Shown one piece after another: positions 33,269-63,801 of a DNA stretch of 64,000 nucleotides (within the stretch, counting starts at the first letter, position 1; every line of letters begins with the position of its first letter). The DNA comes from a virus. The stretch covers positions 64,001 to 128,000 of the IMG/VR virus record IMGVR_UViG_3300019850_000189, one strand, 5' to 3'. The notes under the pieces are model-generated. The model was not told the DNA's origin. It searched no databases and saw only the letters and a program-made list of their open reading frames with translations. The position numbers were made by a program, and so were the translations under genes.

Positions 33269-33345
33269 GGCCCTGTACTCCAACTTGTGGCAGAGAGGCT
33301 GGATTCAAAACCCAGATGTTTGCGGTTCGACTCCGCACAGGGCCA
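33269..33345 (+). tRNA. tRNA-Leu(CAA), short variable loop
   Basis: GGCCCTG/CAGGGCC; CTGGA TT CAA AA CCCAG; 5-nt variable region. Confidence 0.8.
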
Positions 33346-33388
33346 ATAAAAATTTAAGAAGTGCATTTAAATGCACTTGGAGGTAAAA

Positions 33389-34174
33389 ATGAGTAATAGT
33401 ACTCTGAAAACTTATGTCGCTATTATTTTAGATAAGAGCGGTAGCATGGATGGTATTCGAAATGAAGCTCGAAACCATTTTAATGAGCAGATTGAAGCGC
33501 TCAAGGAGGAATCTAATTCTCCAGCAAAAGTAGCAAAAAATCTATTGAAAGGAAAAAAGACCCAAGGTTTAGAAACAAAGGCGACTTTTGTAACATTCAA
33601 TGAGAGCATAGACATGCCAATTTTCAATGAAGATGTTAACTCTTTGAATGAATTAAAACCTAAAGATTACATCCCTGGCGGCATGACAGCTCTTTATGAT
33701 GCGATGGGATTTACTATCCATAAGTTTCTTGACGAAATTCCAGATATAAATGATCCCAATGTTGCTGTCCTCTTTACAGTAATCACTGATGGACAGGAAA
33801 ATGCATCATCCGATTACAGTGGCGAGGAAGGCCGGAAAAAGCTAAAGTCACAAATAGAAGATTTGCAGGCGACTAATCGCTGGACATTTACATATCTCGG
33901 GGCAAATCAGGATGTATTAGAAGAGGCTGTTAAAGGGCTGTCATTTATGGCGAATAATGTGCAAGCCTGGGTTTCTGATCCTTCAGGTACGCGTAACGCA
34001 ACAATGAGACAAATTAGCGGAACGAGAAGTTATTATACAGCTAGAAAAATGGGTCGTACTTCCGTGGCTAATTTTTATGATGTCCCAGATGCGGATAAGG
34101 ATGATGATGTTTCAAAGACAGATAGTGCCTTGACTGCGGAAACGACTATTAACAAAAAGCCCGCTGTTAAATAG
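33389..34174 (+). CDS. von Willebrand factor A (TerY-like) domain protein
   Basis: MIDAS motif ILDKSGSM, GMTALYDAMG, VITDGQENAS. Confidence 0.85.
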   Translation: MSNSTLKTYVAIILDKSGSMDGIRNEARNHFNEQIEALKEESNSPAKVAKNLLKGKKTQGLETKATFVTFNESIDMPIFNEDVNSLNELKPKDYIPGGMTALYDAMGFTIHKFLDEIPDINDPNVAVLFTVITDGQENASSDYSGEEGRKKLKSQIEDLQATNRWTFTYLGANQDVLEEAVKGLSFMANNVQAWVSDPSGTRNATMRQISGTRSYYTARKMGRTSVANFYDVPDADKDDDVSKTDSALTAETTINKKPAVK

Positions 34175-34222
34175 AAATGTTATGATTGCCGGCCTTGATG
34201 ATATAATTTATCAGGAGGAGTT

Positions 34223-35203
34223 ATGAAAAGTGAAAAGCTTTGGTTAAGGCATCGGATAAATAATATATTAATTGTTGAAGACGAATCCGACACTATGGGC
34301 GTCCTCACTTACGCTCTTAAATCTTTTTTGGAAGACGATATAAAAATATATCAGGCGGGCGGTTGTCAAGAGGCTATTGGCATTTCCCATAGGATCGATT
34401 TAGACTTAGCAATCATAGATTACAAGTTGCCTGATGGATCTGGTATAGAACTCATTAAAGAAATAAAAAAACAAAATAATCTTTTACCTGTTCTGATGAT
34501 TACAGGGTATGGTAATACAGTCAAGGAAGACGCTCTGGAGTCAGGCGTCAATGTGTTTCTCGACAAACCTATTGAATTAACTGAATTTCTGAGTTTGAGC
34601 CGCAATTTATTATCGCTCAGTAGGACAAGAAAAAGACTTGTTGACGCTGAGAATATGATTACAGCACTTAACCGTGCAATTGAAGCTAGAGATGTGTATA
34701 CAGAAGGCCATTCTGCCAGGGTTGCTGCTTATAGTTTAATAATATTTGATAATGCTAATATCGGCAATGGCGATAAACGCGAGGCATTACACATGGGATG
34801 TATTTTACATGATATAGGAAAAATTGGTATACCAGATGAAATTCTCAAATCCAATAAAACACCGCTATCGTCATCCGAATATGATGTCATTAAACAACAT
34901 CCAACTAAGGGCTATGATATATGCAAGGATTTGAGTAGTCTTAAGGCCTCTTTGCCGATTATAAAACATCATCATGAAAAGTTGGATGGTTCCGGGTATC
35001 CGGATGGATTAGTAGAAAAAGAGATTCCAGAGATTGTACAGATATCGACAATCGCTGATATTTATGACGCTTTAACTTCAGATAGGAGCTATCGTAAGCT
35101 CAATAGTCCTAAAGAAGCCATTGATATAATGCAAAAGGAAGAAGTGGATGAAGGTAAACTTAATAAAGATTTTTTCGATATATTAAGATTTAAAATGATT
35201 TAG
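34223..35203 (+). CDS. REC + HD-GYP cyclic-dinucleotide phosphodiesterase (RpfG-like response regulator)
   Basis: ILIVEDE...AIIDYKLPDGSG...FLDKP receiver; RDVYTEGHSARVA, LHDIGKIGIP, HHHEKLDGSGYPDGL, IADIYDALTSDRSYR. Confidence 0.92.
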   Translation: MKSEKLWLRHRINNILIVEDESDTMGVLTYALKSFLEDDIKIYQAGGCQEAIGISHRIDLDLAIIDYKLPDGSGIELIKEIKKQNNLLPVLMITGYGNTVKEDALESGVNVFLDKPIELTEFLSLSRNLLSLSRTRKRLVDAENMITALNRAIEARDVYTEGHSARVAAYSLIIFDNANIGNGDKREALHMGCILHDIGKIGIPDEILKSNKTPLSSSEYDVIKQHPTKGYDICKDLSSLKASLPIIKHHHEKLDGSGYPDGLVEKEIPEIVQISTIADIYDALTSDRSYRKLNSPKEAIDIMQKEEVDEGKLNKDFFDILRFKMI

Positions 35204-35975: not shown

Positions 35976-36052
35976 GGCCAGGTGGCTGAAATGGAATAGG
36001 CACTCGGTTGCAACCCGAGATTATGCAGGTTCAAGTCCTGTCCTGGTCTCCA
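35976..36052 (+). tRNA. tRNA-Cys(GCA) with encoded CCA
   Basis: CTCGG TT GCA AC CCGAG; U73 then CCA. Confidence 0.9.
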
Positions 36053-37930: not shown

Positions 37931-38848
37931 ATGCATGTTTTTTATCACTGCAGAGATCTTGACGGGCGTTGTTCCGGCGCAATCGCCAGATACTATCATG
38001 AGAATACAAAAAAAAATAGTAAAGTTGTAATGCACCCATTTGATTATGGATATTCATTTCCATTTGATGAAATAACTGACGGCGAGAAAGTATGGATGCT
38101 TGATGTATCTACCAATCCATATGATATAATGTTAGAAATTAATAATAGATATGATCTCACGGTTATAGATCATCATGCATCATTTATAAATTCTGGAATC
38201 CCTGAGAAATTAAATGGAAAGTTTGAAATCGGCAAGGCTGCCTGCGAACTTACTTGGAAGCACTGTTATGGTTATGGTTCTGGGATGCCAAGATTGGTTC
38301 ACTTATTAGGACGCTATGATGTCTGGGATAAATCAGATCTAGATATTTGGAACAAATACATTCTTCCAACACAGATGGGCGTACAACTGAAAAATGTGGA
38401 TCCAAAAGATGGTTTCGAATTCTGGAAGATGTATTTTGATGATCATTTTGGAACAGGCGACACGGGTATTGTTGAAACTACGATAAATAAACAGGGTTCT
38501 ATTGTTTTAGCTTATCAATATCAAATGGACAAAAAAAATGTGAATCTGAATTCTTTCGCTGCTAAGTTTTTAGATTTTAATGCCATATGTTTAAACTCGG
38601 CGCGTTCCAATTCACAAGTTTTCGAATCCGTATGGGATCCTAATAAATATGATCTTATGTTTTTCTGGAGTAGCGTAAAGGGAGAAAGATACACATGCTC
38701 TATAATTACCGATAAACCCAATATAGATGTCAGTAAGATAGCAAGTGCCTTCGGCGGAGGTGGCCACAAGCAGGCGGCAGGATTCCAATGCAAAAATGTA
38801 GTGATTTCTTCAGAATCAGAAGGTAAAAGAATTATCATAAATATGTAA
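37931..38848 (+). CDS. DHH/DHHA1-family phosphoesterase
   Basis: FYHCRDLDGRCSG, WMLD, VIDHHAS, GGGGHKQAAGF. Confidence 0.88.
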   Translation: MHVFYHCRDLDGRCSGAIARYYHENTKKNSKVVMHPFDYGYSFPFDEITDGEKVWMLDVSTNPYDIMLEINNRYDLTVIDHHASFINSGIPEKLNGKFEIGKAACELTWKHCYGYGSGMPRLVHLLGRYDVWDKSDLDIWNKYILPTQMGVQLKNVDPKDGFEFWKMYFDDHFGTGDTGIVETTINKQGSIVLAYQYQMDKKNVNLNSFAAKFLDFNAICLNSARSNSQVFESVWDPNKYDLMFFWSSVKGERYTCSIITDKPNIDVSKIASAFGGGGHKQAAGFQCKNVVISSESEGKRIIINM

Positions 38849-41148: not shown

Positions 41149-41220
41149 GTGCCCGTAGCTCAGTTGGTGTAGCTGGAGGCTCTAACCCTTCGTGTGTGGG
41201 TTCGAATCCCACCGGGCACT
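41149..41220 (+). tRNA. amber-suppressor tRNA (anticodon CTA)
   Basis: GTGCCCG/CGGGCAC acceptor; GGAGG CT CTA AC CCTTC; GTGGG TTCGAAT CCCAC. Confidence 0.8.
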
Positions 41221-53462: not shown

Positions 53463-53957
53463 ATGAATATTAATAAGAAAGCTATGGATATGCTTTACAA
53501 GCAACGGCAGGATCCTGAGAAAATGCAAAAACTTCTTGAGAATTTCTATGAAATGGGTAGCCAGATAGCGCATCATTTCGATATTCCTTATTCGATGCGC
53601 GCCGACTATATCCAAAGCGCAGTCATTTTATCCTGGAGAAAATTGGATAAATTTGATCCTATAAAGAATAAGCACGCGTTTTCTTATTTCTATCAAGTTA
53701 TCCGGCGAGATTTTATGGACAACATGCGCAAGGCTAAAAAGCGTAGCTCTATAGCCAAAATGATTAGCTCTGATGATTCGAGGAATGACTGGTTAAAAAA
53801 TATGAAATATTTTGATCATCAATATGAAGTTGTGGAACACGATTTTAATAAACAGATATTAACAGGTCTTAAAAAAATAATGTGGACAGAACTCGACAAA
53901 ACGTCCTCCGATAAAAAAACTTCCGATAATAAAACATCTGTTGTATCATCTCCATAA
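53463..53957 (+). CDS. phage late sigma factor (T4 gp55-like)
   Basis: DYIQSAVILSWRKLDKFDPIKNKHAFSYFYQVIRRDFMDNMRKAKK matches the region-2 pattern of gp55-like sigmas. Confidence 0.7.
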   Translation: MNINKKAMDMLYKQRQDPEKMQKLLENFYEMGSQIAHHFDIPYSMRADYIQSAVILSWRKLDKFDPIKNKHAFSYFYQVIRRDFMDNMRKAKKRSSIAKMISSDDSRNDWLKNMKYFDHQYEVVEHDFNKQILTGLKKIMWTELDKTSSDKKTSDNKTSVVSSP

Positions 53958-54231: not shown

Positions 54232-55461
54232 ATGGATAAATTTATTAATTTGCATGTTCACACAGATTCCAGCACGTTGGATGGATTTGGCACAAAAGAA
54301 GCGCGATTTAAATATGTTATCGAGGTCTTGGACCAATCCGCGCTGGCTATTACAGACCATGGAACGATGTCTGGTATATACGACTTCTGGAATATAGCGC
54401 AACAATATAATGTGAAGCCACTATTGGGAGTAGAAATATATTTTGTAAATAATCTCAAAAAACGCGAGAAGAAAGAAAAAAGATATCATCTTGTATTACT
54501 GGCTAAAAATTTAAAAGGCTACAAAAATATAATGCAAATTCAATATATAGCACATAAGTATGGTTTCTATAAAAAGCCAAGGGTGGATCGTGATGTACTA
54601 AAAAATTATTCTGACAATGTCATATGCCTATCGGCATGTGCTGCCAATGATATTAGTGTGGCGCTTGCAGATAATGATATAGCCCTCGCGAAACGGCGAA
54701 TAGATTGGTATAAGGAAACATATGGTGATGACTTCTACTTAGAGTTCCAGCCATATCAATCAGAAAAGTTAAGGCGGATAGATATAAAGCTTTATAAACT
54801 ATGGAAAAAGATACATCATATTAAAGCTGTCATAACCTCTGATGCTCATTATATACAGAAAGAGCAGAGCGAGGATCATGCTAAATTGCTATTAATTAAT
54901 ACAAGGGGAAAAGTTAATGACAATGGCTCTAATAAGTTTAGTTTTAACGAACATAATCTATATTTGCATTCCAGAAATGAGATTATAAATGAGGGATTCC
55001 AAACAGGATACGACAAAAATGATATTGAACAATGGTGTGATACTACAATTGAGGTTGCTGATAAAATTGAAGCTTATGATATAAGACAACAGAATTATAT
55101 AGTTCCGCCAATTCCTGAATTTATGGGTGCCGATCTAAATAAAATATTACGCAAGAAATGCCTTGAGGGATTGAAACAGAAAAAACTATTCGATGATATC
55201 TATATGAAAAGATTGGCTTATGAACTTAAAATAATATATAATGCCGGTTTTTCTTCTTACTTTCTAGTAGTAGCGGACATAGTTAATTGGGCCAAAAGGG
55301 AAGGTATTTATGTGGGCCCTTCCCGCGGATCCGCTGGCGCCTCGCTTACTGCTTATGCTCTGGGGATTACAGCTGTGGATCCTATTAAGCATGATTTACA
55401 ATTTGAGCGCTTCCTCAATCCGGAGCGCCTGGGTGGCAAAGTACTTAAATTTATTGAATAG
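54232..55461 (+). CDS. dnaE: DNA polymerase III alpha (DnaE), N-terminal part (PHP + start of palm)
   Basis: FINLHVHT, AITDHG, YHLVLLAKN, TSDAHY, GPSRGSAG, DLQFERFLNPER. Confidence 0.92.
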   Translation: MDKFINLHVHTDSSTLDGFGTKEARFKYVIEVLDQSALAITDHGTMSGIYDFWNIAQQYNVKPLLGVEIYFVNNLKKREKKEKRYHLVLLAKNLKGYKNIMQIQYIAHKYGFYKKPRVDRDVLKNYSDNVICLSACAANDISVALADNDIALAKRRIDWYKETYGDDFYLEFQPYQSEKLRRIDIKLYKLWKKIHHIKAVITSDAHYIQKEQSEDHAKLLLINTRGKVNDNGSNKFSFNEHNLYLHSRNEIINEGFQTGYDKNDIEQWCDTTIEVADKIEAYDIRQQNYIVPPIPEFMGADLNKILRKKCLEGLKQKKLFDDIYMKRLAYELKIIYNAGFSSYFLVVADIVNWAKREGIYVGPSRGSAGASLTAYALGITAVDPIKHDLQFERFLNPERLGGKVLKFIE

Positions 55462-55487
55462 TACAACTTTAAGAAGGAGTGATTATC

Positions 55488-55991
55488 ATGAGACCATCTT
55501 GGACCGAGCTATTTTTAAATATAACGCGTCTTGTTGCGCAGCGAAGCACATGTGCGCGCCTGAAGGTGGGCGCCGTCCTGGTAAAAGATAATCGTATCAT
55601 TTCTATGGGATACAATGGTGTTCCGCAAGGGCTTGAACACTGCGAAGATCACTTCAGGAAAATATACAATAACAAGGTTAGAATTCAAGACATGTCATGG
55701 GAAGAATATATAGCATCGCCCTTTTTTATGCAGGAACATCACGAATTTTCTACTCATAATGAAATACATGCGGAAACAAATGCGCTAATGTTTGCAGCGT
55801 ATAATGGTGTTAGTACAAGAGGAGCCGATATTTACGTATCATATACGCCGTGCATCCATTGTTCAAAACAAATTCTGCAAGCTGGTATCAACCATGTTTA
55901 TTATGATAAGCCGTATGATCGCGATATGACTGCGATAAAATTTCTTGAAGAGAACGATATAGCGTGCCAGCAAATTGGGGATGACAGTTGA
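55488..55991 (+). CDS. dCMP deaminase
   Basis: RSTCARLKVGAVLV, GYNG, HAETNAL, PCIHC. Confidence 0.92.
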   Translation: MRPSWTELFLNITRLVAQRSTCARLKVGAVLVKDNRIISMGYNGVPQGLEHCEDHFRKIYNNKVRIQDMSWEEYIASPFFMQEHHEFSTHNEIHAETNALMFAAYNGVSTRGADIYVSYTPCIHCSKQILQAGINHVYYDKPYDRDMTAIKFLEENDIACQQIGDDS

Positions 55992-57868
55992 TTATTGACA
56001 AAAACCGATTTAAAACAATTATGGATATTCTGCAAGGCTGGTATTGGGAAATTGACGAAAATAACGTTTATGTTTATTCCGCCGGCAAATGCAAAGAATT
56101 ATTGGGAGTTGAGCCAGAATATGTCTTGGGAAAAACTATATTTGATTTTATGGATGATGAAGAGGCGATAAGAATAGAAAAAGTTCTCAAACAATTCCGA
56201 GACGAGAGAAAAGATTTTACATCATTAGAACACGAGCTCATTAACAAAAATGGTTCCGTGATTACAGTTGAGAGCTGGTGCGCACCCATTTTTAATGATA
56301 AAGGTAAATTCGATGGATATTCTGGAATTGATTATAATATTACAGAACGTAAAAAGTGGGAAGAGGGCTTTCGCGAGCGTGAGAGAAAATTAAGTGTAAT
56401 AATTGCCAGTATAAGCGATGCAGTTATTGCGGTTGATTCGAAAGGGAATATCATTTTATTGAATCAGCGCGCTGAAGACATTTTAGGATGGCAACAGGCA
56501 GATGTTGTTGGCAAGAATCATGATGCTATAATTAATTTATTTGATTGCAATAACGATATTATGAACAGTCCATTGAAACAGGTTTTAGAAACGGCCAAAA
56601 TGGTCACGATAAAAGATAATACCACTTTAATTGCTAAAAATGGTAAAAATATAATGGTGGGCGCTGTTGCATCTCCTGTAAAATTGGATGGCAATATTAT
56701 TGGCGCCGTTATGATTTTTCGTGATGTTAGTATGCAAAAGATGGTAGAAATAGAACTATCTAAAACACAGAAACTCGATGCCGTTGGGGTCCTGGCTGGC
56801 GGCATGGCTCATGATTTCAATAATATATTAACAGCGATAAGTGGCCATATGGAAATTGCCAGGATGTTATCTCATGAGGATAAAGTTGTTGAACATCTCA
56901 GAGAAGCGCTTGGAGCCTGCAAGAGGGCAAAAAGCGTTACGCAACAATTACTCACATTTTCAAAAGGCGGTATGCCACTTCCCAAGCCTACTTCAGTTTC
57001 CAGCGTTATTAAAGATACAGCAAAATTTATTTTAACTGGTACAAATGTCGCAATTGAATATAATATAGATGAAAATATATCTGCTATTGATGTTGATGCC
57101 GAACAAATTTCGGAAGTGATACAAAATATAATAATAAATGCAATTCAGGCAATGCCAGATGGTGGGGTAATGCAACTAAGTGCACAGAATATTTATACTC
57201 CATTCAGAAATCTATGTGATAACTATGTGTCACCAGGTAAGTATGTTAAAATATCAATATCTGATACAGGTAGAGGAATTCCTAAAGAGCATCTATCCAA
57301 GATTTTCGATCCTTACTTTACCACCAAAAGCACCGGGAATGGTCTTGGCCTGTCAGTCGCATATTCTATTATTAAGAAGCATGGGGGATGTATATACGCC
57401 GATTCGAAAATTGGCCACGGCTCTATTTTCAATATATATCTTCCATCAACTGATAAAAAGGCAGAAATAGTAAGCGTCAAGAAGCCTATTAGAGGTACCG
57501 GCCGAATACTGTTTCTGGATGATGAATATTCCGTGAGAGAAACGGGCAAGGTATTGATTGAAAGTTTGGGATACACTGTAGATGTCGTTCGGAATGGTAG
57601 ATTGGCTGTTGAGCACTATAAAAAAGCACTTGAAGATGGGCAACCATTCAGAGCTATTATTGCGGATCTTACAATTCCAGGTGGTATGGGCGGCGTTGAA
57701 GCTATAAAAGAAATCAAGAAAGTAGATCAAAATGTAAAAGCTATCGTTTCAAGTGGCTATTCTACCTCTAATGTCATGAGCGAATACAGGAGCTACGGAT
57801 TTTCGGGGGCTCTCAGAAAGCCATATGATCTCGCAGAACTATCCAAAGCACTTCACGATGTGACATAA
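55988..57868 (+). CDS. cytoplasmic hybrid sensor histidine kinase (PAS-PAS-HisKA-HATPase-REC)
   Basis: Two PAS domains, H-box LAGGMAHDFNNILT, QNIIINA, ISDTGRGI, FDPYFTTK, GLGLS, receiver ILFLDDE...ADLTIPGGMGG...KP; no TM segments. Confidence 0.93.
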   Translation: MIIDKNRFKTIMDILQGWYWEIDENNVYVYSAGKCKELLGVEPEYVLGKTIFDFMDDEEAIRIEKVLKQFRDERKDFTSLEHELINKNGSVITVESWCAPIFNDKGKFDGYSGIDYNITERKKWEEGFRERERKLSVIIASISDAVIAVDSKGNIILLNQRAEDILGWQQADVVGKNHDAIINLFDCNNDIMNSPLKQVLETAKMVTIKDNTTLIAKNGKNIMVGAVASPVKLDGNIIGAVMIFRDVSMQKMVEIELSKTQKLDAVGVLAGGMAHDFNNILTAISGHMEIARMLSHEDKVVEHLREALGACKRAKSVTQQLLTFSKGGMPLPKPTSVSSVIKDTAKFILTGTNVAIEYNIDENISAIDVDAEQISEVIQNIIINAIQAMPDGGVMQLSAQNIYTPFRNLCDNYVSPGKYVKISISDTGRGIPKEHLSKIFDPYFTTKSTGNGLGLSVAYSIIKKHGGCIYADSKIGHGSIFNIYLPSTDKKAEIVSVKKPIRGTGRILFLDDEYSVRETGKVLIESLGYTVDVVRNGRLAVEHYKKALEDGQPFRAIIADLTIPGGMGGVEAIKEIKKVDQNVKAIVSSGYSTSNVMSEYRSYGFSGALRKPYDLAELSKALHDVT

Positions 57869-57881
57869 CATATATATTAAT

Positions 57882-60521
57882 ATGAGAAAAAAATTATATG
57901 AACATCTGAAAGAAAAGGGTATAGATGATGCCAAACATCGCGAACGTCTTGAAATGGAACTTAAAGAATTTAAAAAGTATGAAACTATTAATCACACTAA
58001 ATTGATAGTTGAAATAGACAATGGTGCGGAACCAAGCAAAAGGATTCTGATATGGTATTTGTTGGGGTATATCCATAATGACCCTATTGATAAAATTCCG
58101 GAAAATATAGTGGTACCTGGAAAGGCGCCAGATATAGACCTGGATTTTGAAGATGCCGAAAGAGGCAGAGTTATTGATTATATTAAGCGTCGATTCGGAT
58201 ATAATAATGTTGCTCAGGTTTGCAATGTGGTTACCTACTCTATCAAATCTGCTTTTCAAGATGCCGCCCGTATATATGGCATCCCGGCCCAAAAGGCTAT
58301 TTCCATATCCAAAAACATCAATGATGATAACTGGAATCAAAGCGATGCTTATACGCGATATCCTGAAATTTTTAAGTTCGCAGAACATCTCCTCGGTCAA
58401 ATGCGAAATTATGGCAGACACGCCGCGGCAATCATAATAACAGATAAACCAGTTCAGAAATATATACCATGTCAATATAATAAAGATGATGATATTCTGC
58501 TGGCCGAATTTACCGGTGCAGCTATTCAAGATATTAAATTATTAAAACTTGATATACTCGGGCTTTCAACTTTAAAAATTATGAAAGACACCATCGAACA
58601 TATCAAAGAACGCCATAATAAGGAAATATCATTAGGAGATATAGATTTTAACGACCTATCTGTTTTTAAGTTATTCAGTCACGGTTTAACTACCTCTATT
58701 TTCCAATTTGAAAGTCCATCTATGAAGGGTTATCTGCAGAAGCTTAAACCGAAAGAGCTAGAAGATATAGTAGTAATGAATGCTCTTTTTAGACCAGGCG
58801 CTATTCCAATTATTAATAATTATATTAAAAGAAAGCATGGCAAAGAAAAAATAGAATACGGGCACTCTGTATTAGAAAAAGTTTTAAAACCAACTTTTGG
58901 TCTTCTGGTATTCCAGGAAGAAACTATTATGATAGCTCATCTTGCATCCGGAATAAGCTTAGGTAGAGCTGATATGCTGCGCCGCTATATGGAAAAATGG
59001 AATTCCAAATATAAGAATGATATTAAGGGAAAGAAAAAATGGGAATCAGAATTTTTTCAAGGTTGCCAGAAGCAAGGCTTGAATTCAAAGGAATCAAAAT
59101 ATATTTGGGATTACCTGATTAAACAAACCGGATACCAATTCAATCGCTGCGTGTCTGGAGACTGCATCATCGATGCCGATACATCTAACAAATGGCGGCC
59201 TACTATTGGTGAGATGTATCGTATTAAAAATGATACTAAATATGCCAAAGAAACAAATCATTACCCGTTAATGAAACGATATTGTGGTAAAAAGGGCTAC
59301 GGTAAAAGTTATTCATTGTGTGAAGATGGACTTTTACGACTAAACAATATAGTAGATATCTATTATGAAGGTGACCGCGAAGTATTTGAAATTCTTCTGG
59401 AAGATGGTAAGAAAATAGAAGTGACAGGCAATCATAACTTTCCACTCCCAAATGGCCAAAAACTTAATATAGATAATGGGCTGAAGGCTGGGGACCATCT
59501 CTATGTTAACGAAGGATATAAGAAGAGACCCAAAGGACAAAAAGTCAATGAGCCAACCTTGAGACAAATTGTATCAATCAAAAGCGTAGGGATCAAGGAT
59601 ACGTACAATATAGAAATGGCAGCTCCTAATCACACTCTATCTATTAATGGCATTATAACTTCTAATTCTCATGCTCTTTCATATGCCGTCATCGCATATC
59701 AAACGGCATGGCTGAAGGTACATTATCCTGTTGAATTCATGTGTGCATCTCTCAATTCAGATAAAACCCCTATTGACAAGCTCACAGCAGAATGCGCACA
59801 GTTGGGGATTAAGGTGCTATACCCTAATATAAATAAGAGTAAAATAGGATTTAGTATTGTGGATGATAGAACCATTATTTATGGATTGAGCAGTGTTAAA
59901 AACTGTGGCGAGGTTCCGGCGCAATGGATAACTGCGCATGCGCCTTACGAAAGTGTTACCGAGTTTTTTACAAAGCTCAAAGATGATAAATTTGGAACAA
60001 AGGTGAATAAAAGAGTATTGGACAGTCTCATTCTATCCGGCGCATTTAGCGACCTTTATAAAAATACTAAAACATTATTTAATAATTATAATGAGTGGCG
60101 GAAGAAATGGGGCAAGACTGATTTTGAAACATACATAAAAGGCAAAGAAGTTGAAGACTATAATGATGATGAAAAATCGAATTTCCTTCAGGATTTACTA
60201 AGTATCGATACATCCATGGCATTATTTGAGAAGAAAAGCAAAGAAATTAATCAACTTAGGCAATTACTTGGAAAAGGATATATAATTGGGATTATTACGG
60301 ATTTTGTCCGAAAACGCGACAGAAACGGAAATATGATGGCTTTTGTGAGCATAAGAGATGGCAATGGCATCAGACGATATCCTCTTTTCGCCAGGCAATT
60401 TGCGAATAATAGTAAAAATTTGATTAAAAATAAAATATTAGCATTTAAAATGTCTAATATGAGAGATGGAGATCGCTTGATAACAAGTATCATGCAACCG
60501 GATACATCAATCAATGGGTAA
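57882..60521 (+). CDS. dnaE: DnaE C-terminal part (palm/fingers/HhH/OB) with a mini-intein
   Basis: PDIDLDF, GRHAAA, KLDILGL, FQFES, LFRPG, LVFQEE, FNR/SHA, YGLSSVKNCG, DRNGNMMAFVSI. Confidence 0.92.
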   Translation: MRKKLYEHLKEKGIDDAKHRERLEMELKEFKKYETINHTKLIVEIDNGAEPSKRILIWYLLGYIHNDPIDKIPENIVVPGKAPDIDLDFEDAERGRVIDYIKRRFGYNNVAQVCNVVTYSIKSAFQDAARIYGIPAQKAISISKNINDDNWNQSDAYTRYPEIFKFAEHLLGQMRNYGRHAAAIIITDKPVQKYIPCQYNKDDDILLAEFTGAAIQDIKLLKLDILGLSTLKIMKDTIEHIKERHNKEISLGDIDFNDLSVFKLFSHGLTTSIFQFESPSMKGYLQKLKPKELEDIVVMNALFRPGAIPIINNYIKRKHGKEKIEYGHSVLEKVLKPTFGLLVFQEETIMIAHLASGISLGRADMLRRYMEKWNSKYKNDIKGKKKWESEFFQGCQKQGLNSKESKYIWDYLIKQTGYQFNRCVSGDCIIDADTSNKWRPTIGEMYRIKNDTKYAKETNHYPLMKRYCGKKGYGKSYSLCEDGLLRLNNIVDIYYEGDREVFEILLEDGKKIEVTGNHNFPLPNGQKLNIDNGLKAGDHLYVNEGYKKRPKGQKVNEPTLRQIVSIKSVGIKDTYNIEMAAPNHTLSINGIITSNSHALSYAVIAYQTAWLKVHYPVEFMCASLNSDKTPIDKLTAECAQLGIKVLYPNINKSKIGFSIVDDRTIIYGLSSVKNCGEVPAQWITAHAPYESVTEFFTKLKDDKFGTKVNKRVLDSLILSGAFSDLYKNTKTLFNNYNEWRKKWGKTDFETYIKGKEVEDYNDDEKSNFLQDLLSIDTSMALFEKKSKEINQLRQLLGKGYIIGIITDFVRKRDRNGNMMAFVSIRDGNGIRRYPLFARQFANNSKNLIKNKILAFKMSNMRDGDRLITSIMQPDTSING
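59148..59666 (+). mobile_element. 173-aa mini-intein (no endonuclease)
   Basis: Starts CVSGDC, ends DTYNIEMAAPNHTLSINGIITSN followed by Ser; removal restores YQFNR-SHALSY. Confidence 0.9.
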
Positions 60522-60542: not shown

Positions 60543-60848
60543 GTGATTTTTTGTTCAGCAGAAATGAACGAAAATAAATATAAGCGAAACTCTAAAAAAT
60601 TGATGGATATAATCTATGAGCATCGGGCTTCATATTTGTTGTATGAGAATAAATTTCAGAAAACTCCTGAACACTGTGCATGCGATGAATGTCTCGCTTT
60701 CATTGAAGAAAAAATGAACAAGTTTAATATAGATCAAAAGGAATTTTTCGATAATTGGAAAAAGGAATTTATCAGAGATGTCAAACTTCATGCTGCACCA
60801 ACAAAAACAGGCAAAGCAAAAGTATTATTGGATGGGGAAAATTCATGA
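60543..60848 (+). CDS. hypothetical protein
   Basis: 101 aa ORF. Confidence 0.5.
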   Translation: MIFCSAEMNENKYKRNSKKLMDIIYEHRASYLLYENKFQKTPEHCACDECLAFIEEKMNKFNIDQKEFFDNWKKEFIRDVKLHAAPTKTGKAKVLLDGENS

Positions 60849-61201
60849 ATATAATGATTTTGGAAGATTCACCAGAGCGTTGTGAATTCTTTCGAAAATT
60901 TTTGAGCGGCAATGTTCTGTATTTTTATGATAATGCAGAGGCTGCAAAGACGGCCCTGGAAGTTCAAGAATTCGATATGATATTTCTGGACCATGATTTA
61001 GAAGGCCAGGTTTATGTTAATTCTGATTACGAGAACACTGGTTACCAGGTGGCAAAATATATTGCGGATAAAAATATAAAAACTCAAGTAATTATACATA
61101 CGATGAACTATTCCGGAGCCCGTCGAATGCTGTCTGTTTTGCCAAATTCAAAATGGGTCGCTTTTAATCAGCTGTTGGAAGCATATAAAATTGACAGATG
61201 A
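60845..61201 (+). CDS. stand-alone receiver-like protein (cyclic-phosphate-processing receiver family)
   Basis: ILEDSPER...IFLDHDL...NTGYQVA...IIHTMN..GARRM. Confidence 0.7.
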   Translation: MNIMILEDSPERCEFFRKFLSGNVLYFYDNAEAAKTALEVQEFDMIFLDHDLEGQVYVNSDYENTGYQVAKYIADKNIKTQVIIHTMNYSGARRMLSVLPNSKWVAFNQLLEAYKIDR

Positions 61202-61605: not shown

Positions 61606-61933
61606 TAATATCTTTGAAGTAAAAACCGAAGCTATTAAAGCCTTGTTTAAAAATGTTCCAATTAAAATTGTAGAGGCCATCCTATACAAAAAAAAGGAAA
61701 TATGGGAGAATAAGATGAAAATGCCATTTGCCAAAGGCAAAACTATAAAAGACGCTTCTGAAAAGCCTAAAGAAGATACACACATATTAAAGGTGGTTTC
61801 TAACTTCAGGAAATTGTATCAAAAAAAGAATTCTAATGAAACATATATAGAAAGTAAGAAAGAAAAATTAGAGGAGCAAAACAAAAATGAATTCAAGAAG
61901 AACAAACATCGAAAAACTCAGAGAAATGTATGA
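61577..61933 (+). CDS. hypothetical protein
   Basis: 118 aa ORF, start uncertain. Confidence 0.35.
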   Translation: MAYWEYMVLDNIFEVKTEAIKALFKNVPIKIVEAILYKKKEIWENKMKMPFAKGKTIKDASEKPKEDTHILKVVSNFRKLYQKKNSNETYIESKKEKLEEQNKNEFKKNKHRKTQRNV

Positions 61934-62729
61934 GAAGTCTAAGACGAATAGCAACTTTTCAAATAATTTTTGGTATCCTCCCGATGAGGAGAATATAATT
62001 AGAATTCTCCCTCCGCTAGAGGGCAAGGATGTATTTTACAAAGCAACGGGGACCCATAAATTTGGAGACTATTTCTTTTGGTGCCCAAGATTAACGGAAG
62101 GTAAGCGATGCCCAATTTGTGAAGAGAGAAAGCGCAGGTATGAATCTGGCACCGATGTGGATCGCGAAGTTGCCTACAAACTTAAAGGAAAGAAAAAGTA
62201 TATTTACAACATAATAGACCGAAAAGGTGATGATCCTATAAAGGTGCAACAGTATATTACAGGTCCCAAGGTCTGGGAAAAAGTTCTTTCGTATTACTTT
62301 GATGAGGAATATGGAGCTCTAGATGATATAGAAAAGGGCTACGATTTTAAGTTGATTAAAAAAATGATTTCTTCGTCAGAGGGAGAATTTGCCAATTACG
62401 ATGATTCTCGACCAATGAAGACCGCCTCCAAGCTGGCAGATAGCGATGAGGACATTGCGGAGATACTTTCTAATTTGAAAGACCTGGATACAATAATCAA
62501 TCTGAAAGATTACGACACAATGAAAGCCGCTTTGGACCGCTTCCTGGTAGAATACTATAATGCTAGCACTTCTGATAATGAAGAAATAGTTTCCACCCCC
62601 GAGATTAAAACCAAATCAAAGGATAAGAAAAAGCCCGAACCAACACCAACTATCGAAAATGAAGATGAAGCAGATATTGATGATTTTGAAGCCAAGCTGA
62701 TGAAAGAACTCGCTGAAGATGATGAATAA
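61887..62729 (+). CDS. single-stranded DNA-binding protein (T4 gp32-like)
   Basis: FWYP...IRILPP...H...CP...CPICE, NIIDR, GYDFKL, NYDDS, acidic tail. Confidence 0.85.
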   Translation: MNSRRTNIEKLREMYEKSKTNSNFSNNFWYPPDEENIIRILPPLEGKDVFYKATGTHKFGDYFFWCPRLTEGKRCPICEERKRRYESGTDVDREVAYKLKGKKKYIYNIIDRKGDDPIKVQQYITGPKVWEKVLSYYFDEEYGALDDIEKGYDFKLIKKMISSSEGEFANYDDSRPMKTASKLADSDEDIAEILSNLKDLDTIINLKDYDTMKAALDRFLVEYYNASTSDNEEIVSTPEIKTKSKDKKKPEPTPTIENEDEADIDDFEAKLMKELAEDDE

Positions 62730-62835: not shown

Positions 62836-63801
62836 ATGCCACAGGAACATCAAGTTGAAGTTAAAAAATATATTTTTAGAGCTCGAGTTGGTTCTCACCT
62901 TTATGGACTTAATACTCCAGAATCAGACGAAGATTTTGTGAGCGTATTTATTCCTGGGGAGGATTATATTCTTGGTCTCAAAAATGTGGATGAGATTGAT
63001 CGCTCCACTAAGAAATCAGATGCCAAACGTCGAAATAGTCCAGAAGATATCGACGATAAAGCTTATAATATTCAGAAATTCCTCAAACTTTTAATTAACA
63101 ATAATCCCAACATTGTGGAGATCTTATTTGCTAGGCCCGAAAATATTATAATCTTAGAACCAGAGTTCAAAGAGCTTATCGATAATTATGAAAAAATTGT
63201 CAGCACTCGTGCCTTTTGGACTTTTACTGGTTATGCTTACTCACAGAGAAAGCACCTTATTATAAAGAGCGAGCGTTTCAGAGGTCTCACTGAAGCTGTA
63301 GAATATCTTGAGAGCATTGGTGTTAATCCGCGCGAGATCACTGAGCTTGAATCTTCAGAGCTCAATCATTTTCTTAAGTTCTATAAGGGGGAAAAAGGTA
63401 ATACAGAATTTTTCCACAAAGGAATGCCTCTTGAGCATATTTATAACCGTGTTAAGTCCGAGCTTGATATGTATGGCTATCGGATTAAGGAGCTTAACTT
63501 TACTGGCAAAGGCGGAGAGCTATATGATTCTAAATTCGCTTACCATTTAATTCGGCTTCTCGATGAGGGTAGACAGCTTCTTGAAACAGGCCATATTGAA
63601 TTTCCAATTTCTGGAAAAGCTCGCGATGATATTCTAAAGATCCGAAATAAGGAAGTGCCTTTTGAGGATCTCCTGGAACTTTATGATAAGTATAACTCCG
63701 AAATTAAAAAAATTAATGAGAAATCTCCTATCCGCAAAAAGCCAGATTTTAACTGGGCTAATAAATACCTTGTGAGGATTTTGAAAGAGAGTCTTTTGTG
63801 A
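62836..63801 (+). CDS. RlaP/NrdC.11-like nucleotidyltransferase
   Basis: VGSHLYGLNTPESDED Pol-beta motif, NNPNIVEILF, YDSKFAYHLIRL, LPKKPD-like C-terminal IRKKPD. Confidence 0.85.
   Translation: MPQEHQVEVKKYIFRARVGSHLYGLNTPESDEDFVSVFIPGEDYILGLKNVDEIDRSTKKSDAKRRNSPEDIDDKAYNIQKFLKLLINNNPNIVEILFARPENIIILEPEFKELIDNYEKIVSTRAFWTFTGYAYSQRKHLIIKSERFRGLTEAVEYLESIGVNPREITELESSELNHFLKFYKGEKGNTEFFHKGMPLEHIYNRVKSELDMYGYRIKELNFTGKGGELYDSKFAYHLIRLLDEGRQLLETGHIEFPISGKARDDILKIRNKEVPFEDLLELYDKYNSEIKKINEKSPIRKKPDFNWANKYLVRILKESLL

Follow-up and report, generated by a model that had tools for sequence, protein, structure and literature searches.

A REC-HD-GYP protein from a phage-only branch: a candidate phosphorylation-gated c-di-GMP-type phosphodiesterase of large phages that encode sensor kinases

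Introduction

RpfG of Xanthomonas campestris, whose partner kinase is RpfC, and PA4781 of Pseudomonas aeruginosa consist of a receiver (REC) domain followed by an HD-GYP domain, and their control by a sensor kinase is an established logic. Here, we describe a virus gene for a protein of the same architecture. It lies at positions 34223-35203 of a 64,000-nucleotide (nt) window, the whole stretch of DNA that was analysed, which comprises bases 64001-128000 of the IMG/VR virus record IMGVR_UViG_3300019850_000189 (positions are those of the window unless stated otherwise). The 326-amino acid (aa) protein belongs to an old branch of the family that, among the members whose context was examined, has been seen so far only on phage contigs. 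From its sequence and predicted fold, we put at about one half the probability that it is a phage-lineage, phosphorylation-gated phosphodiesterase of the cyclic di-GMP (c-di-GMP) type, most likely fed by the phage's own kinase.

The best structural and second-best sequence match to the phage protein is PmGH of Persephonella marina (GAF-HD-GYP; 4mcw/4mdz). The 3′3′-cyclic GMP-AMP (3′3′-cGAMP) phosphodiesterases V-cGAP3 of Vibrio cholerae and PmxA of Myxococcus xanthus are likewise members of the HD-GYP family. To interfere with the nucleotide signals of their hosts, phages are known to use sponges or small enzymes that are always on. HD-GYP proteins have been reported from all three groups of jumbo phages (for example QDB70412.1) by Iyer, Anantharaman, Krishnan, Burroughs and Aravind (2021), who predicted that they counter signals of SMODS/CBASS (cyclic oligonucleotide-based antiphage signalling systems) and CRISPR (PMC7824862); a phage-borne HD-GYP and the anti-CBASS idea were therefore already known. 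The passages of that paper on these proteins mention neither a receiver fusion, nor a phage-specific clade, nor co-encoded histidine kinases. The literature searched yielded no histidine kinase encoded by a phage and coupled to an enzyme of this kind, no experiment on a phage HD-GYP and no phage HD-GYP acting against CBASS. What is new here is the branch, so far phage-only, its persistence across very large phages, the virus sensor kinases that accompany it and, in one case, a cyclase.

Results

Domain architecture and predicted structure

The gene (+ strand, ATG start, TAG stop included) was taken from the list of open reading frames (ORFs), and the only Pfam matches of its product are Response_reg, HD_5 and HD. 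Response_reg (PF00072) covers residues 15-123 (E 4.8e-19; 69 bits against a gathering cut-off of 30.2) and HD_5 (PF13487, the HD-GYP model) covers residues 149-307 (E 4.3e-31; 108.4 bits against 27.2). The nearest named family in NCBIfam is a response-regulator c-di-GMP phosphodiesterase, with a score far under the cut-off of that family, and PHROGs holds no family matching the HD-GYP half.

An AlphaFold2 model computed from 65 sequences has a mean predicted local distance difference test (pLDDT) score of 92.2 and comprises a receiver, a linker helix and an all-helical catalytic domain. The receiver (residues 13-123; 34259-34591, + strand) is delimited by Pfam, by the beta-alpha fold of the model, in which five strands (13-18, 40-45, 62-66, 90-94 and 111-114) alternate with helices, and by conservation in the clade described below. 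A long helix of 38 residues (119-156; 34577-34690, + strand), assigned by DSSP on the model with pLDDT 79-97, connects it to the HD-GYP catalytic domain (149-307; 34667-35143, + strand), which is defined by HD_5 and by alignment to PmGH (4mcw) and V-cGAP3 (5z7c). The top Foldseek matches are PmGH (4mcw), c-di-GMP-bound DvhD (9rbz) and PA4781 (4r8z), each with a probability of 1.00, followed by receiver domains; the REC part of the model superimposes on Spo0F and KdpE with a root-mean-square deviation of 1.4-1.7. All sequence and fold tests place the protein among the ordinary members of the REC-HD-GYP family.

Receiver and metal site

An earlier note, made from the sequence alone, had described an intact receiver together with HD, HHE and GYP motifs, and had suggested that the enzyme works under phosphorylation control. 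The motifs are all present. The phosphorylation quintet of the receiver is complete (E19/D20, phospho-acceptor D66, T94, F112 and K115-P116), and the catalytic half contains D157, Y159, H163, H196-D197 (HD), K200, H226, H250-H251-E252 (HHE), G258-Y259-P260 (GYP), D279 and D282. Control by phosphorylation is well supported, since D66, Thr or Ser at position 94, and K115 are each retained in 51 of the 52 aligned clade members.

Residue roles established for PmGH (Bellini et al., PMC4159591) were carried onto the phage protein through a HMMER alignment. The PmGH metal ligands H189, H221-D222, H250, H276-H277 and D305 correspond to H163, H196-D197, H226, H250-H251 and D279, the catalytic pair D183/K225 to D157/K200, D308 to D282, and the GYP motif to G258-Y259-P260. 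These metal ligands, the D157/K200 pair and GYP are invariant in all 52 aligned members, and D282 is kept in 51. Seven of the eight PmGH metal ligands are thus retained; the eighth, E185, is replaced by Y159 (in the triplet Y-T-E), a tyrosine in every aligned clade member. In PmGH, E185 bridges the third iron, and a binuclear metal centre has been predicted for the subgroup of HD-GYP proteins with Y or F at this position (Bellini et al. 2014, PMC4159591). The lack of a carboxylate at the E185 position, where Y159 stands instead, rules out the E/D-T-G subgroup with its trinuclear iron. The substitution by an invariant tyrosine assigns the phage enzyme to the Y/F subgroup and leads us to expect a two-metal centre.

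A branch found on phage contigs

A search of 5.8 billion proteins returned thousands of REC-HD-GYP relatives, from which the top 58 clusters (40-95% identity) are set apart, and seven further loci were found in IMG/VR. In a maximum-likelihood tree of 109 sequences, which included 30 GTDB sequences as the best bacterial genome matches, a clade of 65 rows (Shimodaira-Hasegawa-like approximate likelihood ratio test 100, stem branch 0.46) unites the query with 57 of the first 60 metagenome proteins and all seven of the IMG/VR loci, and none of the 30 GTDB sequences falls into it. The closest bacterial or archaeal relative, among the matches listed in GTDB with one genome per species, reaches 39% identity, while identity within the clade is 44-95%.

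Contexts were examined for 13 clade members, six of the top 58 clusters among them, and all are phage contigs, up to 732 kb long. Cluster P0001 lies on a syntenic 16.7-kb phage contig and P0005 on a 57-kb phage contig with T4 gp13; P0012 (250 kb), P0013 (732 kb), P0016 (up to 388 kb) and P0131 (191 kb) carry the REC-HD-GYP gene ~3 kb downstream of gp32 and DnaE. Genes for gp32, DnaE, T4 gp13 and HNH proteins are among the neighbours on the 57-, 191-, 250-, 388- and 732-kb contigs. Flanking genes are shared only with the nearest relatives, which come from two other samples (L002 and, by gene order, L254), while relatives at 44-57% identity have nothing but the REC-HD-GYP gene itself in common with the window neighbourhood, most of them with gp32 ~3 kb upstream. 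It is therefore the gene itself that is kept. We take it to be no recent acquisition from a host, but part of a REC-HD-GYP branch that large T4-like phages possessing gp32 and a split DnaE have maintained. More widely, ~60 IMG/VR contigs of several lineages carry an HD-GYP gene.

The region gave no megablast match to 50,697 phage records, and tblastn against phage records found unannotated human-gut 'Bacteriophage sp.' fragments at up to 47% identity and Microcystis phage MaAM05 at 31%; the gene thus has no cultured close relative there. The capsid protein finds its best matches in an uncultured phage of 595 kb (35%) and in Rhodothermus phage RM378 (31%). The nearest bacterial REC-HD-GYP proteins, among the GTDB matches listed, are scattered over Acidobacteriota, Elusimicrobiota, Thermodesulfobacteriota and others. 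No single host emerged from the capsid matches, these bacterial proteins or the protein clusters, which gave generic bacterial assignments only.

The member P0013 is located on a contig of 732,019 bp (L007; jgi 3300082197 Ga0673036_0000002), where its 21-kb neighbourhood holds gp32, GIY-YIG and Apyc1-like genes. If this contig is one phage throughout, it would be among the largest phage genomes reported.

Nucleotide recognition

The guanine-reading motif of the phage protein is R288-S-Y-R291 (RxxR), the counterpart of R314xxK317 in PmGH. Across the 52 aligned clade members, the motif reads RxxR in 45, RxxH in six and RxxN in one. R314xxK317 of PmGH reads guanine, the RxxQ of PmxA is cGAMP-specific, and the substitution Q518R turns PmxA towards c-di-GMP (Wright et al., bioRxiv 10.1101/600031). 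Having RxxR in place of RxxQ or RxxN, the phage protein is not a PmxA-type enzyme, and the cGAMP-specific class of that type is ruled out. The top sequence match in the PDB is V-cGAP3 (5z7c; E 1.5e-28), marginally ahead of PmGH, with domain-level scores of 92.5 bits against 96.3 for PmGH. We know of no sequence signature for the preference of V-cGAPs for 3′3′-cGAMP.

A relative of the same clade, the 388-kb genome G002, encodes at ~336.1-336.8 kb (L257:1483-2157, - strand) a GGDEF protein of 224 aa whose N terminus has two membrane helices. With its GGEEF motif intact and an RxxD I-site, it has the appearance of an active diguanylate cyclase carried by a phage. Its presence suggests that c-di-GMP proper is the currency of these phage-host pairs.

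The earlier note had left the choice between a c-di-GMP modulator and an anti-CBASS enzyme. Sequence alone does not decide it, and the lean is towards the former: R288xxR291, the closest folds, which are c-di-GMP enzymes or binders, and the GGEEF cyclase of the relative all point to a c-di-GMP-type enzyme. We regard c-di-GMP as the likelier substrate, by something more than even odds. The conserved receiver also suits a signalling role better than it would one of the always-on anti-signal enzymes known to date.

A DHH/DHHA1 phosphoesterase of 305 aa with DHH and GGGH motifs is encoded 2.7 kb downstream (37931-38848, + strand; Pfam under cut-off, PHROG 4771 'DHH phosphoesterase' E 3.7e-25). Such an enzyme could clear linear dinucleotides such as pGpG, although the link is weak. 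We rejected it as a fixed partner, its homologues being confined to G002 (40% identical) and, weakly, G008.

Phage-encoded sensor kinases

A genome search with Pfam identified a candidate phosphodonor, a 626-aa hybrid sensor kinase with the architecture PAS-PAS-HisKA-HATPase_c-REC (55988-57868, + strand), 21 kb downstream of the REC-HD-GYP gene. Its translation contains the H-box AHDFNN and the G1 and G2 motifs DTGRG and GNGLGL. The gene for DNA polymerase III alpha (DnaE) is split in two, with those for the kinase and a dCMP deaminase (55479-55991) lying in the gap: the first part (54232-55461) holds PHP and the first 98 profile positions, and the second (57882-60521) the remainder, with a weak intein-splicing match at residues 441-683. 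Just upstream of the split polymerase, a 164-aa ORF (53463-53957) with a sigma-70 region 2 match (E 2.6e-6) may encode a phage sigma factor.

An ORF at 60845-61201 was considered as a third two-component receiver and rejected, as it is a cREC domain (PF20274, E 9.5e-13). The REC-HD-GYP protein is consequently the only canonical receiver, outside the kinase itself, that the phage encodes for this kinase. The cREC gene is closely followed by gp32 (61887-62729) and by the gene for an RlaP RNA-repair nucleotidyltransferase (62836-63801), an order kept in L083; cREC domains are tied to NAD/RNA-repair systems in the account of Iyer et al. (PMC7824862).

All three near-complete clade genomes have both a kinase and REC-HD-GYP, and a fourth genome probably does too. 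G001 (250 kb) encodes three kinases, of which two are PAS hybrid kinases, and G002 (388 kb) encodes one. The probable fourth case, G006 (L083), has the same split-DnaE layout, in the order deaminase, kinase, DnaE-C, cREC and gp32, and its sequence ends before the place where REC-HD-GYP would be expected, which explains the apparent absence of the gene. The G006 kinase is 100% identical to cluster P0135, and the longest contig of P0135 and the REC-HD-GYP contig of P0131 are both 191,071 bp long and may be one and the same record. No DNA overlap proving the identity of G006 and the 191,071-bp contig was found, nor one between L003 and G011. Four further samples each contain a kinase fragment and a clade REC-HD-GYP fragment. 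We give phosphotransfer from kinase to REC-HD-GYP a little under even odds.

A second cluster of signalling genes in G001 (151.6-156.8 kb; L079, L081 and L265) encodes, one after another, a histidine kinase of the Cache-HAMP type, a free-standing receiver and a kinase with the architecture REC-PAS-HisKA-HATPase-REC; an Apyc1-like gene is found at ~34.6 kb of this genome.

Genomic setting

The source is a 189,375-bp linear IMG/VR virus record with an estimated completeness of 79%. The phage is T4-like, though distantly so; its genome encodes a Gp23-type capsid protein, gp32 and the split DNA polymerase III alpha, and it has 36 tRNA genes and one transfer-messenger RNA (tmRNA). REC-HD-GYP is present once in the record. 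A strong Shine-Dalgarno sequence, AGGAGGAG (34213-34220, + strand, by direct reading of the sequence), ends 2 nt ahead of its ATG. Compared with a 95%-identical copy from another sample (L002), the gene has 26 synonymous and 15 non-synonymous changes, a ratio of non-synonymous to synonymous rates (dN/dS) of 0.14; it is real and under purifying selection. Its placement among tRNA genes, also remarked on in the earlier note, is confirmed by tRNA-Leu(caa) (33269-33345), 0.9 kb upstream, and tRNA-Cys (35976-36052), 0.8 kb downstream, both part of the array of 36. The local G+C content of 0.36 is like that of the surroundings.

Between the upstream tRNA gene and REC-HD-GYP, a 267-aa protein (33371-34174) has a von Willebrand factor A (vWA)-like DxSxS motif (ILDKSGSM), no Pfam match, and similarity to PHROG 7371/26613, of unknown function. 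A gene of 262-265 aa directly upstream of REC-HD-GYP is also present in L002 (91% identical) and in L254 (by gene order only); the vWA-like gene was not found in the distant REC-HD-GYP relatives. TAG ends 25 of the 127 long ORFs of the genome, REC-HD-GYP among them, and a tRNA with a CTA anticodon (41149-41220), labelled tRNA-Pyl by ARAGORN, is of the amber suppressor type. Read-through of the TAG at the end of REC-HD-GYP would add only 15 residues. The phage tmRNA (44175-44519) has the tag peptide ADENLALAA.

Discussion

We infer the following course. The phage would read an intracellular cue early in infection or during replication, most likely through its own cytoplasmic PAS-PAS hybrid histidine kinase (55988-57868), which would be the phosphodonor for D66 of the receiver. 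The phospho-signal, passing through the long linker helix, would switch the C-terminal HD-GYP domain, a predicted metal-dependent phosphodiesterase, and the domain would then open guanine-containing cyclic dinucleotides, most likely c-di-GMP. A lowered level of c-di-GMP in the host could shift its motility, matrix, surface or cell-cycle state in the phage's favour. A further step, in which these genes make up a complete virus-encoded two-component pathway, with the PAS hybrid kinase sensing the cell, REC-HD-GYP setting host c-di-GMP and at least one member of the clade adding its own cyclase, is doubtful.

Several observations weigh against such a kinase-fed c-di-GMP enzyme. A hybrid kinase would normally need a histidine phosphotransfer (Hpt) protein, and no Hpt or ChpT-like relay gene was found in the genomes G000, G001, G002 and G006. 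The kinase and regulator genes are 21 kb apart here and 11 to ~80 kb apart in relatives, never adjacent and in no common operon. Strict co-occurrence of kinase and HD-GYP has to be rejected: HD-GYP is present on three of 15 large kinase-bearing phage contigs and absent from the other 12, and five HD-GYP phages of other lineages lack a kinase. Cellular homologues of the kinase (40-47% identical) are no more distant than its phage homologue (46%). As to the substrate, V-cGAP3 also has RxxR, which makes the motif compatible with 3′3′-cGAMP, and the window phage genome has no GGDEF or PilZ gene. As to the lineage, the 13 members with known context are a minority of a clade of at least 58 protein clusters, and the GTDB comparison covers the matches listed only.

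The missing relay in four phage genomes, the separation of the two genes, the far wider distribution of phage kinases than of phage HD-GYP and the HD-GYP phages of other lineages without a kinase all favour a different wiring, in which D66 would receive its phosphate from acetyl phosphate or from histidine kinases of the host, and the phage kinase would serve another target, for example host regulators. We consider this a serious alternative, with roughly one chance in three of being right; against it, every near-complete clade genome has at least one PAS hybrid kinase, the kinase-regulator pair persists while the regulators diverge from 95% to 48% identity, and the window phage encodes no other canonical receiver protein to take the kinase's phosphate. 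Somewhat less probable is that the HD-GYP domain is a counter-defence enzyme that destroys CBASS-type signals (3′3′-cGAMP, or c-di-GMP with CdnE-STING) and stops abortive infection, with the receiver only tuning it. This is the role predicted by Iyer et al. (2021) for HD-GYP proteins in all three jumbo-phage groups (PMC7824862), and it would agree with the cGAMP phosphodiesterase V-cGAP3 as best PDB sequence match, with the Apyc1-like anti-Pycsar gene a few kb from REC-HD-GYP in the relative G001 and also in L006/L007, and with the recurrence of HD-GYP in ~60 IMG/VR contigs of several lineages. Where c-di-GMP is itself the immune signal of the host, its hydrolysis would amount to counter-defence, so the two possibilities overlap. 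Yet 51 of 52 clade members keep a canonical receiver, the cGAMP-specific RxxQ/N signature is absent, the GGEEF cyclase of the relative phage fits signalling better than signal destruction, and the literature search offers no precedent. The anti-signal enzymes known to us (Acb1, Apyc1 and ring nucleases) are small and unregulated, which also counts against counter-defence.

The place of DvhD (9rbz) near the top of the structural matches brings to mind a non-catalytic role like that of DvhD or Bd1817, in which the protein would act as a receptor for c-di-GMP or regulate by binding other proteins. Such a role is very improbable: the HD and HH metal ligands are missing from DvhD (PMC13090378), whereas all 52 aligned clade members keep H163, H196-D197, H226, H250-H251, D279, D157 and K200. 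More improbable still is host DNA without a phage role, brought into the contig by misassembly or recent transfer. The REC-HD-GYP family is overwhelmingly bacterial, but this gene lies between phage tRNA genes with the G+C content of its surroundings, recurs with the same neighbours in two other samples (L002 and L254), belongs to the phage-only clade and has a dN/dS of 0.14.

If a phosphorylation-gated, kinase-fed phosphodiesterase is indeed what these phages encode, some large phages would go beyond blocking a host signal and take a measured decision on it, and the full circuit, if true, would mean that, within its host, a virus operates a sensory second-messenger circuit of its own. The finding would then be relevant to the means by which huge phages control biofilm, motility, receptor display or abortive-infection signalling in anaerobic and sediment communities, and the two-gene set of kinase (626 aa) and regulator-enzyme (326 aa) is a compact system for studies of viral sensing. 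Were the protein an anti-CBASS or anti-STING nuclease instead, it would be the first HD-GYP fold with such a role demonstrated, and would put the 2021 prediction to the test.

Set beside known systems, the phage protein may share its purpose with Acb1 and Apyc1, the proven phage degraders of immune cyclic nucleotides, while the folds are unrelated: Pfam finds in it neither the 2H phosphoesterase fold of Acb1 nor the metallo-beta-lactamase fold of Apyc1, and the window phage has no Apyc1-like gene. To our knowledge, Acb1 and Apyc1 have no regulatory domain. The jumbo-phage HD-GYP proteins of Iyer et al. resemble the gene in coming from very large phages and in their predicted anti-nucleotide role. 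In V-cGAP3, HD-GYP domains are arranged in tandem and the part that matches contains no receiver, and the PmxA class has RxxQ/N, where the phage protein combines REC with RxxR. With PmGH it has in common seven of the eight metal ligands, the D183/K225 pair, GYP and the R314xxK317 guanine contacts; it differs in the change of E185 to Tyr and in its sensor, a GAF domain in PmGH and REC in the phage. The HD-GYP domain of PA4781 (4r8z), a top structural match, has a bimetallic site, the type of centre predicted for the phage protein. Unlike RpfG and PA4781, however, the protein described here is virus-encoded, sits on a phage-only branch at most 39% identical to proteins of species-representative bacterial genomes (among the matches listed), and has as its candidate kinase not an adjacent membrane sensor but a soluble PAS-PAS hybrid encoded 21 kb away.

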